64,000 nucleotides of DNA from an uncultured Campylobacter sp. (lineage in GTDB: Bacteria; Campylobacterota; Campylobacteria; Campylobacterales; Campylobacteraceae). Made by a program: the position numbers and the translations under genes. The notes under the pieces were generated by a model. The model was not told the DNA's origin. It searched no databases and saw only the letters and a list, made by a program, of their open reading frames with translations. Location: assembly GCF_937980635.1 (NCBI RefSeq), contig NZ_CALJPG010000022.1:38516-102515 (forward strand). The letters run 5' to 3'. Positions 37,944 to 43,240 of this stretch are shown piece by piece; position 1 is the stretch's first letter; every line of letters starts with the position of its first letter.

Positions 37944-39008
37944 TTAGCCGATTTGAGCCGCTACTTCGGCAGCGAAGTCTTCGCTCTTTTTCTCTAGACC
38001 CTCGCCCACTTCGAAGCGGACGTATTTTACGATCTCGATCTTGCCGCCTAGTTTTTTAGCTTCTTCGTCAATCACCTGCTCGACGGTTTTCTTATCGTCC
38101 ATGACGTAAAATTGCCCTAGCAGCGTGAGTCGCTGATCGATTTGAGTGTTATCGGCGATGAAGCGATCGATCTGACCCGGCAAAATTTTATCCCAAATTT
38201 TTTCAGGTTTATTTTGCTTGCGAAGTTCATCTTTTAAAGCTTCGATCTCTTTGGCTAAAATTTCATCGCTTAGATGCGCGCGCGAGCCAAACTGCGGGAT
38301 CTTATGAAGCGGCTTACCTAAACGCACAAACTCCTCGTTTTCCTTCTCAAACTCGCCTTTAAGAGCCAAGAATTCTTTTTCGATAAAATCTGGGTCAAGC
38401 TCTTTATAGCTGATGACCTGCGGTTTCATCGCGGCTGCGTGCATGCAGAGATTTTTTATAAGCTCCTTCGCACCCTCCGCAGTCCGCTCGCTGTCGCAAG
38501 CTGCTGCGATGATGACGCCTACACGGCCGTTTGAGTGCAGGTAGCCGTTTACCACGCCGTTTGCGCCCGCTTTAATCGTCTCAAATCTTCTAACGACCAA
38601 ATTTTCGCCGATCGTAGCGATCTGACTCTTTAGGTGCTCGTCAAATTTAACGCCGTTAATGACGCTGGAATTTAGCTCATTAATGCTGCTAATGCCCTTG
38701 CTTTGGATATGTAGAGTAGTATTTTTAACTAAATTTATAAAATTTTGATTTTTAGCTACGAAGTCGGTTTCGGAATTTATCTCGCTTATGGTGGCGATCT
38801 TGTGATCCGCTCCCACTTCGACACTCACTAGACCCTCGCTAGCTAGACGGTCGGCTTTTTTAGCAGCCTTTCCAAGGCCCTTTTCGCGAAGCAGATCGAC
38901 GGCCTTATCCATATCGCCATCTGTTTCAACCAAAGCCTTTTTGCAATCCATCATCCCCGCTCCGGTGCTTTCGCGGAGCTCTTTTACCATTTGCGCGCTG
39001 ATTTCCAT
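37944..39008 (-). CDS. tsf: translation elongation factor Ts
   Basis: VKELRE.TGAGMMDCKKAL UBA-like N-terminus; 354 aa. Confidence 0.97.
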   Translation of the reverse strand: MEISAQMVKELRESTGAGMMDCKKALVETDGDMDKAVDLLREKGLGKAAKKADRLASEGLVSVEVGADHKIATISEINSETDFVAKNQNFINLVKNTTLHIQSKGISSINELNSSVINGVKFDEHLKSQIATIGENLVVRRFETIKAGANGVVNGYLHSNGRVGVIIAAACDSERTAEGAKELIKNLCMHAAAMKPQVISYKELDPDFIEKEFLALKGEFEKENEEFVRLGKPLHKIPQFGSRAHLSDEILAKEIEALKDELRKQNKPEKIWDKILPGQIDRFIADNTQIDQRLTLLGQFYVMDDKKTVEQVIDEEAKKLGGKIEIVKYVRFEVGEGLEKKSEDFAAEVAAQIG

Positions 39009-39805
39009 TACTCTTCGTCCTCGCTTACGTCAAAATCCTCTTCGCTCATCGCCTCGGCTACGACTTCCTCTTTCTCTTCGTCGCTGACGGCTTCGCTCTG
39101 CTCGCCGTCCTCGCTCGCATCTTGATCGCGAAGCGCCTTGCCCTCGTTGATCGCCTCAGCCATCTCTTGGCAGAAAAGCTGAACCGAGCGGATCGCATCG
39201 TCGTTGCCGGGTATTGGGAAATCGACTACATCCGGATCGCAGTTCGTATCCAAAGGCGCGATAACCGGCATTTTTAGGCGGTTAGCTTCCGCTACGGCGA
39301 TCTTTTCTTTTACAACGTCGATGACGAAGATCATATCGGGAAGGCCCTTCATATTGCGAATGCCGCCTAGATAAAGCTCGAGCTTCTCTTTTTTGCGGCG
39401 AAGCATTAGCGCCTCTTTTTTAGTTAGTAAATTTATCGAGCCGTCCTCTTCCATAGTCTCGATTACTTCGAGCTTGCGGATCGATTGCTTGATAGTGGAA
39501 AAATTCGTCAGCATGCCGCCTAGCCATCTGTGGCTCACATAAGGCATGCCGCATTTTTCGGCGTACTCTTTTAGCGTCGCGCCGGCTTGTTTTTTGGTGC
39601 CTACGAAAAGTATCGTCTTGCCCTCGGCAGCCGCGTCGCGCACGATATTATAAGTGTAGCGAAAGTAGCGGATAGTTTTTTGTAGATCTATGATATAGAT
39701 ACCTTTTCTCTCGCCGAAAATGAATTTTTTCATCTTCGGATTCCATCTGCGTGTTTGGTGTCCGAAATGAACGCCGCACTCTAGCAAATCTCTCATTGTT
39801 ACCAT
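39008..39805 (-). CDS. rpsB: 30S ribosomal protein S2
   Basis: [25 protein letters not shown]; acidic C-terminal tail. Confidence 0.97.
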
Positions 39806-40113
39806 GAGTTTTCTCCTTGTGGGTTGCCCCGAAATTTAGGTTTCTCCTCCACACCCGTTAACATTTGTTTTTGACAAACGCAACCAAATTTTAGGATTGG
39901 TGTGTGTGAATTGAAGCTGGGATTATATTTAAATCTTTATTAAAATAAGCTTGATTATATAAAGATGAGAGATCGAGAGTAATATAATGATGTAAAGTTT
40001 ATTATTTCATCAAGGCATCCTTATATTGAAATTTCGTAATTTTTTGATAGTATACAAAAAAGGTCTAACAATTTTAAAAATCAATAAAAAATTCTATCGT
40101 TTATTTTTAGCGC

Positions 40114-40794
40114 TTAATACATCAACCTTGGCAAGAAATTTTCAAATTCATTCACTATAAATTCACGAGTTTTTGTTTTATCTGCACCATTAATAATATT
40201 GATACTATAGACTGTAGCGAATATGCTAAGTTGATTTACGCAAGTTAAAATTGTTGAAATTTGTCGTCCGTATGTCATATAAAGCAAAGCTGATACAAAT
40301 CCATCATTCTCAGAATAGTTTCTAATTACGCATACCTTAACTTCGTTGTCAATTTCACCATTTAGAATTCCGCAAATTTTAAATGCGATATCGATGAAAT
40401 AGTATATATAGGCTATATCCGTATCGTTATAGTCATATTTCAATCTTACTTGCCATTGCGATTCGAAAAAAGCGCAGACATCGGAAAAATTATGAAATTG
40501 TTTTTTAGACCCACGCAAAAGCACATCAATAACAAAATTTGAAATTCCAACTTTGCCAAGTTTAAAACCATAGAATTCATCTAAAAATTCTATAAAAATA
40601 TTTTTGGCTTTACCTTTGTTTTTTAAAAATCTTTCAAAGTCCATATATGTATTAGACATTTTCATTGTAACATCTGTATTCTCTTTATCTATGTCTATGC
40701 TGCTACTAGTATCATTTCTATTATTGGTTTTTATATCATCACTAGTTGCCCAGCCTATTGCAGTTAAAATTATAAAAAATATGATAACTTCCAT
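40114..40794 (-). CDS. hypothetical membrane-anchored protein (orphan)
   Basis: 226 aa. Strong AGGAG RBS 6 nt before ATG. One N-terminal TM helix. No recognisable motif. Confidence 0.65.
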   Translation of the reverse strand: MEVIIFFIILTAIGWATSDDIKTNNRNDTSSSIDIDKENTDVTMKMSNTYMDFERFLKNKGKAKNIFIEFLDEFYGFKLGKVGISNFVIDVLLRGSKKQFHNFSDVCAFFESQWQVRLKYDYNDTDIAYIYYFIDIAFKICGILNGEIDNEVKVCVIRNYSENDGFVSALLYMTYGRQISTILTCVNQLSIFATVYSINIINGADKTKTREFIVNEFENFLPRLMY

Positions 40795-40820
40795 AAAATA
40801 CTCCTAATAAAAAATGACTA

Positions 40821-41294
40821 TTAGAAATTTGGAAAATCAGATATAATACGATCATAATCGCCAATTCTATATATTTTCATTATGGCTGCGATTATGGCGT
40901 ATGAAAAAAACTGCACCGTCAAAGGGGTATCTGCCAACGTCAGCATACATTCCCCATCGGTTGATGTTCTTATACACATTGTAGTAATAAAATTTTGTCG
41001 TAAATTCATCTGCATATCAAGCAATATATCACCCGCAACAGTATCATATGTCATAAGCGGTACTTGATATTTATCCTTTGAAATTCCGCTATCCTCGCAA
41101 AATCTTAACGATATACGATCATCACTATGATACATAGGACATAATTGCTCATAAATAAATTCTTCAGCATCTGATTTGATATTAAATTCATGCATGATCT
41201 TTTCGAAAGCAATTTGAACATATGATGGGATTAGTAGTATCTTTTTGGTTTCTAATATCTCTTTTAAAATTTTTATATTTTCCATAATTTGCAT
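40821..41294 (-). CDS. hypothetical protein (orphan)
   Basis: 157 aa. First gene of the two-gene minus-strand unit, 26 nt upstream of the next gene. No recognisable motif. Confidence 0.55.
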   Translation of the reverse strand: MQIMENIKILKEILETKKILLIPSYVQIAFEKIMHEFNIKSDAEEFIYEQLCPMYHSDDRISLRFCEDSGISKDKYQVPLMTYDTVAGDILLDMQMNLRQNFITTMCIRTSTDGECMLTLADTPLTVQFFSYAIIAAIMKIYRIGDYDRIISDFPNF

Positions 41295-41310
41295 CCAAAT
41301 TTTAAAATTT

Positions 41311-41324
41311 CTAACTATAGTTAG
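41311..41324. promoter_or_regulatory. perfect 14-bp palindrome CTAACTATAGTTAG, candidate XRE operator
   Basis: Located in the 90-120 bp divergent intergenic region, next to overlapping TATAAT-like boxes (attataat at 41335-41342). A GTTAG half-site recurs at about 41358. Confidence 0.4.
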
Positions 41325-41413
41325 TTGATAGCGGATTATAATCCAAATATACTTATGGTTAGTTTAATTATAGGTAGGCGTATTTGAAGGATTGCACGAT
41401 AACCGATGAGAAG

Positions 41414-41644
41414 ATGGACGCTATTTACAAGGCTATCGGCGATAATGTCAAGCGCATCAGAACGGTAAAAGGCGTTTCGCAGCTTTCGCTCGCCCTTGCC
41501 ATCGGACACAAAGCCGTAGGAACGATCTCAATGGCTGAACTTCATATCAATAAAAAACATTTCAATATTGAGCATTTGATAAAAATAGCAGATGTTTTGG
41601 AGGTAAATATTTCGGAATTTTTTGTTTTTGATCCACAACTCTAA
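41414..41644 (+). CDS. XRE-family helix-turn-helix transcriptional regulator
   Basis: IGDNVKRIRTVKGVSQLSLALAIG...ISMAE...HLIKIADVLEVNISEFF is a classic HTH_3 pattern. ATG 41414 preferred. A TTG at 41384 is an alternative start. Confidence 0.8.
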   Translation: MDAIYKAIGDNVKRIRTVKGVSQLSLALAIGHKAVGTISMAELHINKKHFNIEHLIKIADVLEVNISEFFVFDPQL

Positions 41645-41649
41645 ATTGA

Positions 41650-42381
41650 TTAAATTTTATTCATCACAAAGCCGCAGAAGCGCCCGGTAGCGCCGTCTTT
41701 TCGGTATGAAAAATGCCGCTCGCTCTCGAAGGTACAGCGCGGATCAAATTTAACGTTTCGCACCCCCGCAGCTGCGAGCTCGTCGCGCAGCGCGGCGTTC
41801 ATATCGAAATGCCCCTGCGTTTTGTAGCGCTCAAACTCGCCCAGATCAAGCCCGCCGAGTTCGTAGTTTCGCGCCTTGATATTCGCGCCCACGAATACTT
41901 TCAGCTCCGCAGCGACGCAGCCGAAGCGCTCGTTCATCAAATTTATCGCATTGGTGCAGATCCGCTGGATTACGCCTGCGCGCCCCGCATGCACCGCAGC
42001 GACCACTCCGCGCCGCTCGTCCGCGATCAGCACGGGCGAGCAGTCCGCTACCAGCACGCACAGCGCCACGCCGCGCAGATCGGTCACGAGCCCGTCGCAG
42101 GGCGGGATTTCAACGCCACCTGCGCGTAAAATTTCAACTTTGTTTGAGTGGATCTGACGCATAAATTTTAAATTTCGCGGCGCGATACCGAGTGCGGCAG
42201 CTAAAATTTCGCGGTTTTGCGCGACGTTTTGCGGATCGTCGCCTACGTGATCTCCTAAATTTAAGCTCGCGTATGCTCCGCCGCTTACGCCGCCAAGCCG
42301 CGTGCTAAAGCCCGCCAACACGCCGCATCCGTCCAATACAAACTCAAGATTTTCTCTGCAAATTTCGATTTTGCCCATCAT
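41650..42381 (-). CDS. pgeF: peptidoglycan editing factor PgeF (YfiH/laccase-domain protein)
   Basis: GFSTR.GGVS..y.slNlg.hvgD, QIHSNKV, ADC.PV and HAGRAG motifs. Confidence 0.85.
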   Translation of the reverse strand: MMGKIEICRENLEFVLDGCGVLAGFSTRLGGVSGGAYASLNLGDHVGDDPQNVAQNREILAAALGIAPRNLKFMRQIHSNKVEILRAGGVEIPPCDGLVTDLRGVALCVLVADCSPVLIADERRGVVAAVHAGRAGVIQRICTNAINLMNERFGCVAAELKVFVGANIKARNYELGGLDLGEFERYKTQGHFDMNAALRDELAAAGVRNVKFDPRCTFESERHFSYRKDGATGRFCGFVMNKI

Positions 42382-42388
42382 GCGCCGC

Positions 42389-43240
42389 TTAATACAGGCT
42401 CAAAATTTTATCTACTGCGTCCCACGAAAGCCCCTCTTTTTCGCCCTCGGCGCTCTCATCGCGCACCGTGTCCATACCGCAGACGGGCTGTCCGCCGGCA
42501 AAGCCTAGCTGCGCCGCGACGTATCGCGCGAGCAGATCAGTTTCGATATTTACGCGGCGCCCAATTTTGTAGCTCCCAAAGAGCGTATCTTTAAGCGTGA
42601 GCGGGATGATCGTAAGGCGAATGGCGCAGCTTTGCGCTTTACTCTTTAAATTTGCGCCCAAGGAGTTCGGATCGCGAACGGAATTCGAGCCGCTATAATT
42701 TAGCCCGCGCAAGCTTGCGCCGTTAAAATTTGCGCCGCGCGGCTCTTTATGAGTAAAATTTTCGCCGTCAAGACATTGGTCTTTAAAATTTCGCCCGTGC
42801 GAGCCGCCGATTTCAAGCACTTCGTTTATCGTTAAACTCACGCCGTCGATCGCCACCGAGCCCTTCGGCGCTAGTAGCGGCGCTATGTGCAGCGGTGCGC
42901 GGATAAAAAAATCGACTCCGCTTGCGAGCTTTGAAATTTTATAAATTTCGCCCACGGCATCGACGTGCCCTTGGATCAAATGCCCGTCTATGCGCTCGCC
43001 TAGCCGCATCGCTGGCTCGATATGCACCGGGCCGCGCAAGTTTTGTGCGGCGATGACGCGCGCCGTTTCACTCGAAAGCTGCACCGTAAATCCGTCTGCA
43101 AAAAGCCGCGTCACGCTCAGGCACGCGCCGTTTACCGCGACGCTATCTCCGAGCGCGGGGCGGTATTTCGCGCGCAGTCGCAGCAAATCGCCGCTAAAGC
43201 TCGCAACCTGCGCGATCTCTCTGATCAGTCCGTTAAACAT
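42389..43240 (-). CDS. ribE: riboflavin synthase alpha chain with ~60-aa insert in the second lumazine-binding repeat
   Basis: MFNGLIREIA..., GDSVAVNGACLSV and SVAIDGVSLTI duplicated barrels. Confidence 0.85.
   Translation of the reverse strand: MFNGLIREIAQVASFSGDLLRLRAKYRPALGDSVAVNGACLSVTRLFADGFTVQLSSETARVIAAQNLRGPVHIEPAMRLGERIDGHLIQGHVDAVGEIYKISKLASGVDFFIRAPLHIAPLLAPKGSVAIDGVSLTINEVLEIGGSHGRNFKDQCLDGENFTHKEPRGANFNGASLRGLNYSGSNSVRDPNSLGANLKSKAQSCAIRLTIIPLTLKDTLFGSYKIGRRVNIETDLLARYVAAQLGFAGGQPVCGMDTVRDESAEGEKEGLSWDAVDKILSLY

Follow-up and report, generated by a model that had tools for sequence, protein, structure and literature searches.

The 64,000-nucleotide stretch of Campylobacter DNA analyzed here (the window) carries, between rpsB and pgeF, a block of AT-rich foreign DNA that is horizontally exchanged and is not part of the core genome. 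This islet encodes a small XRE-type helix-turn-helix (HTH) repressor and, divergently from it on the minus strand, two cargo proteins of 157 and 226 amino acids (aa), which we refer to as o157 and o226. Our comparisons demonstrate that the site is a recombination hot spot in a clade of oral Campylobacter, with at least seven alternative occupants, and that o226 arose when a 176-aa protein (o176) was fused to the N-terminus of a membrane protein. On balance, we favor the interpretation that the islet, as one of these occupants, is a self-contained accessory cassette gated by its repressor.

An initial annotation of the window had singled out an AT-rich islet at this place, and its composition bears this out: positions 39957-41648 have a G+C content of 30.4% (0.304) against a window mean of 47.1% (0.471, standard deviation 0.054 for windows of 1692 bp), and comparably low values are found elsewhere in the window only in a separate element at 59-61 kb. 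Comparison with empty sites places the right edge immediately past the pgeF stop. The left edge lies at about 39956, about 150 bp upstream of rpsB, where homology to the empty and other states of the site restarts. No convincing integration repeats were found at the edges, and no integrase, transposase or phage gene adjoins the islet. We located pgeF in 60 of 61 genus genomes and then read the interval between pgeF and rpsB, which could be classified in 41 of them. Five have an empty spacer of 283 bp; 17 hold an iadA-like amidohydrolase gene (379 aa, Amidohydro_1/3) of host-like G+C (~47%), two hold a gene for a secreted Sel1/Hcp-like repeat protein, and 17 hold an AT-rich XRE islet. Because the genome from which the window comes, which is 99.9% complete, lacks the iadA-like gene throughout, the occupants are alternatives to one another. 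The islet with o157 and o176 is itself present in 9 of 78 genus genomes, with the site otherwise empty or differently occupied; its genes are neither ubiquitous nor of host-like composition, and the proposal that the block was acquired horizontally is upheld. It shows atypical composition, presence/absence polymorphism at one site, alternative occupants and a similarity between islets that is discordant with that between their flanks. Homologous recombination through the conserved flanks would be the simplest mechanism for such an exchange. As to the other occupants, the iadA-like gene is the commonest single gene in the slot (L045 1432-2571 in G073, and 16 other genus genomes). The Sel1/Hcp-like proteins (L034 799-1401 in G028 and L037 781-1404 in G080) are cysteine-rich, secreted and 200-207 aa long, with ~38% G+C, and the slot in L037 has an additional membrane open reading frame (ORF) of 102 aa.

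The XRE islets at this site are built on one regulator backbone. All islet types share the XRE gene and its divergent control region (92-99% DNA identity) but not what lies behind them, and in the alignment of the control region the types diverge straight after a 14-bp palindrome, O1. Type 1 islets (G026, G013, G074 and G098) encode proteins of 157, 136 and 176 aa, the second with an N-terminal transmembrane helix; type 2, which comprises the window, G024, G065, G089 and G097, encodes the 157-aa and 226-aa proteins; type 3 (G009, G010, G067 and G068) encodes a 251-aa protein and a 158-aa protein with a transmembrane helix and a coiled coil; and type 4 (G032 and G096) encodes a 221-aa protein and a 228-aa protein with two transmembrane helices and a coiled coil. 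Every type has one N-terminal transmembrane protein (136, 226, 158 or 228 aa). The 251-aa protein is a collinear homologue of the 221-aa protein (23% identity), and neither o157 nor o176 has a detectable relation to them. By eye, similar C-terminal hydrophobic motifs had suggested that o157, the C-terminal domain of the 136-aa protein and the 221/251-aa proteins could be paralogues of o176, an idea that found no support in hhalign or BLASTP comparisons. In none of the nine genomes that carry the o157/o176 islet is the XRE gene disrupted.

The second cargo protein of the window had been described as a 226-aa protein with one N-terminal transmembrane helix and a strong AGGAG ribosome-binding site. 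The ribosome-binding site is indeed present, and so is the helix: residues 1-17 form the only strongly hydrophobic stretch (Kyte-Doolittle 2.08; MEVIIFFIILTAIGWA), followed by an acidic, polar linker. What the description did not capture is that o226 is a recent fusion of two genes. Alignment to type 1 islets shows that about 290 bp are missing from the window, an in-frame deletion that joins residues 1-50 of the 136-aa membrane protein to the whole of the 176-aa protein (...MKMSNTY followed by MDFERF...), with the overlap ATA(T) at the deletion junction. The 50 N-terminal residues of o226 are near-identical to the N-terminus of P0004 (136 aa). Unfused 176-aa genes, each with a start and a ribosome-binding site to itself, are found in G026, G013, G074 and contig L072; on a metagenome contig, the unfused parent allele encodes a 136-aa protein with the near-identical N-terminus and then a 176-aa protein 95% identical to that of the window. 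Before the fusion, o176 is a soluble protein. The fused form is now the commonest in public data, its protein cluster occurring on 51 contigs as compared with 2 for each unfused cluster. Over ~0.85 kb (about 39.9-40.8 kb), the fused allele has no mismatch in three other species-level genomes (G065, CAJPRT and CAURKZ), G024 is 100% identical to the window over o226, and the 3' tail of the islet (39957-40113) is 100% identical among the fusion-type genomes; the flanking genes of fused-allele genomes differ from those of the window at 2-9 bases per 100. The fused allele has spread unchanged through several species, and at least five species-level genomes with flanks 3-7% apart share it base for base. 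The half of the window islet from o157 to XRE is closer to that of the type 1 genome G026, and the window's copy is for this reason itself recombinant.

The relatives of o176 narrow the cassette to its conserved part. In 401 genomes of the class, a profile search detected homologues with 26-35% identity in C. majalis and in a second genus, whose proteins are labelled C. concisus; a further profile search of 5.8 billion proteins returned Campylobacter members only, none of them named. The C. concisus-like genomes have an o176 homologue of 194-210 aa alone, not membrane-anchored, encoded in AT-rich DNA (27-30% vs 40-45% G+C) divergently from an 85-aa XRE, with a DNA ligase or luciferase-like gene on one side and galE on the other. 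In C. majalis, a small ORF and two o176 paralogues in tandem are transcribed divergently from an 87-aa XRE. The pairing of XRE with o176 recurs in these other lineages, with members in Campylobacter only, and the two can therefore be regarded as a conserved unit. XRE and o176 thus form the conserved core across three Campylobacter lineages, to which o157 and the 136-aa protein are clade-specific additions. The notion of an effector pair made of the 157-aa and 226-aa proteins does not hold, as the conserved partner of XRE is the 176-aa domain alone. These more distant islets of XRE and the o176 family, all AT-rich, lie at L114 6931-7938, L115 7166-8170, L116 7210-8217 and L117 3781-5552; the interval between the DNA ligase or luciferase-like monooxygenase gene and galE resembles a second variable slot, whose gene content differs between genomes.

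The core is also maintained. Between types 1 and 2, o176 has a dN/dS of 0.16 over 60 substitutions and is under purifying selection; XRE has values of 0.08-0.13, o157 of 0.29-0.49 over few substitutions, and the core neighbor genes of 0.03-0.09. For o157, a full HMMER scan of 1.84 billion representative proteins returned only its own cluster, and translation may start at its second ATG (41285), which would give 154 aa. In the alignment of the o176 family the invariant polar residues are one Thr and one Tyr only, and the best motif is TCVNQLxxFATVYxIxIxxGxDK; this pattern does not look like an enzyme active site, and the family is probably non-enzymatic. A HEPN Rx6H motif in o176 (R44...H51) was rejected, being unconserved in the family.

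The control region of 89 bp between XRE and o157 holds a compact set of predicted elements, in keeping with the earlier view of XRE as a local regulator. Three operator-like CTAACYATAGKTAG sites lie within 41311-41377. O1 (CTAACTATAGTTAG), which is kept in all islet types, lies between a palindromic -10 element and the o157 start; this element, GGATTATAATCC, sits between O1 and O3 and, with a TATAAT -10 box readable on either strand, is a candidate promoter element of the cargo operon. A promoter scan predicted a sigma-70-like XRE promoter (TTGATA-17-TATACT, 41325-41353), and O2 and O3 overlap its -10 box (TATACT, 41348-41353) and the XRE ribosome-binding region. Beyond O1-O3, the 64-kb window has no further site with two or fewer mismatches to the operator consensus, and the 2.2-Mb genome has no site other than O1 with one mismatch or fewer. 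In two distant members of the genus, XRE homologues with 83-85% identity have the operator motif beside them as well, as does a homologue of 60% identity on an Aliarcobacter plasmid. In the C. concisus type, ATCTCTATAGAGAT stands at the equivalent position with the same CTATAG core and different arms, the pattern that would be expected if repressor and operator had co-evolved. Based on this arrangement, XRE dimers bound at O1, immediately past the cargo -10 box, would hold the o157-o226 operon largely silent, and by binding O2 and O3 over its own promoter and ribosome-binding site XRE would regulate itself. XRE consists of a bare HTH domain and lacks a sensor domain; for this reason the cargo would be expressed when XRE is absent, diluted or destroyed, and not in response to a ligand.

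The regulator matches PHROG repressor families and PADLOC HTH models, among them PDC-M69A (2.4e-7). Homologues of about 60% identity occur on Aliarcobacter and Sulfuricurvum plasmids in unrelated contexts (HipA, strings of small ORFs, a GGDEF gene). The regulator is a portable part that says little about the cargo. One of them, on the Aliarcobacter cryaerophilus plasmid pM830MA (L122, 115890-124129), is 60% identical, has the same operator motif, and is divergent from six small hypothetical genes near integrase fragments and a pair of HNH endonuclease and AAA ATPase genes. The XRE orthologues of 83-85% identity are at other chromosomal sites in smaller genomes (L088 880-1758 in G061 and L089 1077-1758 in G087); the divergent neighbor is a DUF1643 gene in one case and a gene for a 107-aa secreted-looking protein in the other, and both orthologues have the same operator-like motif upstream. 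Outside the window, the genome itself has a second XRE paralogue of ~40% identity in an 89-aa frame (contig C1 30624-30848), which is also present in many genus members.

Table 1. Features of the islet and its flanks (window coordinates).
Feature	Position	Strand	Basis or remark
rpsB (ribosomal protein S2), flank	39008-39805		family match
3' tail of the islet (non-coding), between the o226 stop and the left end of the AT-rich insert	39957-40113	-	
o226, 226-aa ORF	40114-40794	-	ORF list
o176 domain (aa 51-226 of o226)	40114-40644	-	separate 176-aa gene in unfused islets
N-terminal 50 aa of o226	40645-40794	-	derived from the 136-aa membrane protein that unfused islets encode
Ribosome-binding site (AGGAG) of o226, 6 nt upstream of ATG	40801-40805	-	direct sequence reading
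o157, first cargo gene, 157 aa	40821-41294	-	ORF list
Operator O1 (predicted)	41311-41324		perfect 14-bp palindrome CTAACTATAGTTAG
Palindrome GGATTATAATCC, candidate cargo promoter element	41333-41344		TATAAT on both strands
Operator-like O3	41349-41362		two mismatches to O1 consensus
Operator-like O2	41364-41377		two mismatches to O1 consensus
XRE/Cro-C1-type HTH repressor, 86 aa, TTG start	41384-41644	+	HTH_3 E=3.4e-5
pgeF/Cu-oxidase_4, flank	41650-42381		family match

In the 3' tail of the islet, a terminator-like hairpin was looked for and none was found, and an Rfam scan of the islet gave no RNA family match. A search of the literature returned no account of this locus or of its protein families. 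Next to pgeF, the riboflavin synthase gene ribE (42389-43240) has an internal Asn/Gly/Ser-rich segment whose length varies among relatives (L079, L085 and L086), one of which has an extra GVGLNFNGASLRGLN-like repeat.

What the cargo might do is suggested mostly by its pattern of change. The cargo turns over behind a constant regulator, it includes tandem paralogues in C. majalis, it is restricted to certain lineages and is frequently found as pseudogenes, each islet type at the site has a membrane-anchored component, and one allele has swept. Together, these observations make a conflict-related role plausible, and of the roles considered here, a part in conflict at the inner membrane, for example in phage exclusion or abortive infection, is the likeliest, at less than even odds. 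It could also be imagined that the o176 family is the effector of a new Campylobacter-restricted, XRE-gated, membrane-acting exclusion or abortive-infection system, that the slot is a "cassette socket" with one repressor-operator backbone and interchangeable conflict cargos, and that the fusion swept several oral species since tethering improved its function; taken as a whole, we consider this extended proposal unlikely.

A number of our results weigh against reading the islet as a working, gated cassette with a role in conflict. Across the four islet types, the cargo proteins are without a usable match in Pfam, PHROGs, NCBIfam or PADLOC, in agreement with the initial annotation, which could name no motif in the window's two; sequence and profile searches of the PDB gave no match for the cargo proteins, and no relative of the cargo was found in phage records, IMG/VR contigs or plasmids. 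The AlphaFold models (pLDDT 48 for o176 and 42 for o157) are unusable, being too poor for a fold search. The neighboring genes (tsf, rpsB, pgeF and ribE) are housekeeping genes and do not make up a defense island. Decay is also visible: o157 is frameshifted in G013, G074 and G098, o176 in G074, and in three type 3 genomes it is XRE that is frameshifted, with the cargo intact. Derepression is therefore tolerated in that type, which argues against a strongly toxic payload, at least there. In addition, the promoters and the repression described above are predictions from sequence. The suggested link to abortive-infection, toxin-antitoxin-like or superinfection-exclusion modules is not supported, as the cargo has no match in PADLOC, PHROGs or toxin and immunity families; against PADLOC-DB 2.0, there was no meaningful cargo match in any of the four islet types, only XRE matching HTH models, and the polymorphic-toxin immunity families Imm44 and SUKH gave no significant profile match for o176. 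Three low-scoring hits were judged to be chance matches: Ago_MID_bact for o157 (E=0.026, 15 bits), Imm44 for o176 (one of eight family members, E=0.12, 13 bits vs a cut-off of 25) and Cmr1 for the transmembrane stretch of the 136-aa protein. An origin of the cargo in a phage or plasmid was rejected for want of any match in phages, plasmids or IMG/VR.

Comparison with known systems helps to place the islet. Like the immunity switches of lambda (cI/OR) and CTX-phi (RstR), it has a small XRE-type HTH repressor, here on AT-rich acquired DNA, and a divergent promoter region with three related predicted operators, of which O1 would cover the cargo promoter and O2 and O3 that of the repressor. As in the switches of phages and mobile elements, the operator has no second copy in the genome when up to one mismatch is allowed. 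Unlike the lambda and CTX-phi switches, the islet has no second, Cro-like HTH gene (o157 matches no HTH or phage family) and no phage, integrase or replication genes nearby, and the regulated genes encode orphan proteins, not lytic functions, with no match in phage records or IMG/VR. The controller (C) proteins of type II restriction-modification systems are similar in being small HTH proteins that gate acquired genes through a palindromic operator, and XRE has a weak match to the PADLOC "Control_protein" models (E ~0.007). Yet C genes lie upstream of the endonuclease gene and are co-directional with it, whereas the islet is divergent, its operator differs from C-boxes, and it encodes no methyltransferase or nuclease domain. 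The slot resembles the hot spots of P2/P4-like elements and chromosomal defense islands in its fixed position and in the mutually exclusive cargo sets exchanged between lineages; unlike the P2/P4-like hot spots, its flanks are core housekeeping genes and not a mobile element, and unlike defense hot spots, its occupants include metabolic (iadA-like) and Sel1-like genes, and none is a recognized defense system. Small AT-rich islets that combine an XRE gene with orphan genes recur across bacteria, and hardly any of them can be assigned a function. The islet is best placed with these widespread and little-understood cassettes, whose orphan genes are guarded by an XRE repressor.

The same observations can be read without a function for the cargo. 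The islet could be a neutral or decaying hitch-hiker, the leftover of an unsampled mobile element that is passed on by natural transformation at a recombination hot spot, with cargo that now does nothing for the cell. Such an origin would fit the frameshifts in o157, o176 and the type 3 XRE, the formation of o226 by a deletion, the narrow distribution of the islet in the genus and the presence of XRE homologues in unrelated plasmid contexts. Selection speaks against it, in view of the low dN/dS of o176 and of XRE, and so does the retention of the XRE-o176 pairing in three Campylobacter lineages whose proteins have diverged to 26-35% identity. The fused allele, moreover, is the commonest and is identical across species, and neither a neighboring integrase, transposase or phage gene nor a phage or IMG/VR match points to a parent element. 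We regard this explanation as unlikely, and continue to favor a gated accessory cassette.

Such a cassette could also serve the envelope or the niche of the bacterium, with a role at the cell surface, in host interaction or in stress, and with XRE as an ordinary local regulator. The N-terminal transmembrane protein in every XRE islet type at the site would be in line with this, as would the secreted Sel1/Hcp-like protein among the occupants of the slot and the human-associated, metagenome-assembled Campylobacter from which the genomes come. It is at odds with the o176 homologues of the C. concisus-like genomes, which are unanchored and alone with XRE, and with the soluble state of o176 before the fusion; besides, there is no signal peptide, lipobox or adhesin-like feature. 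This makes an envelope role quite improbable, and leaves the gated accessory cassette, whatever its cargo does, as our preferred interpretation.

The last alternative is a module resembling toxin-antitoxin (TA) systems, as had first been considered, in which one toxic cargo protein would be neutralized or silenced by XRE or by the other cargo protein. The islet does share with type II TA pairs that have XRE antitoxins (HipBA, HigBA and MqsRA) a small XRE gene next to genes for small proteins of narrow distribution on acquired DNA; unlike in those pairs, its genes are divergent and do not form an adjacent, co-directional and co-transcribed pair, and Pfam, NCBIfam, PADLOC and the PDB gave no recognized toxin fold or family for o157, o176 or o226. 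Even with XRE proteins being common antitoxins, with weak NCBIfam matches to HipB/Y4mF-type antitoxins (E=0.001-0.009), a plasmid XRE homologue adjoining a HipA toxin gene, and an XRE kept intact throughout the nine o157/o176 islets, three or four of which have decayed cargo, an addiction module is very doubtful given this layout, the bare 86-aa HTH without a toxin-binding or neutralizing extension, the o176 family without invariant catalytic-type residues, the broken XRE tolerated in a sister islet type, and a chromosomal location where addiction would be of little benefit.

In conclusion, the islet stands at present as a well-described acquired cassette and not as a new mechanism, and offers a good experimental handle in its hot spot, its fusion sweep and its clean operator set. 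It is easy to study, as one slot exists naturally in empty, metabolic-gene and four XRE-cargo states, its repressor and predicted operators are well defined and would act only locally, and the conserved core has been narrowed to one 176-aa family that is found in Campylobacter only. The membrane-tethered and free forms of o176 provide a natural experiment that is already at hand. If the cargo proves neutral, the islet would document how junk DNA is spread between species by recombination hot spots. If the cargo serves exclusion or defense, it would represent a new effector family, and would show that defense-like cassettes can be swapped behind a fixed regulator in naturally transformable bacteria.

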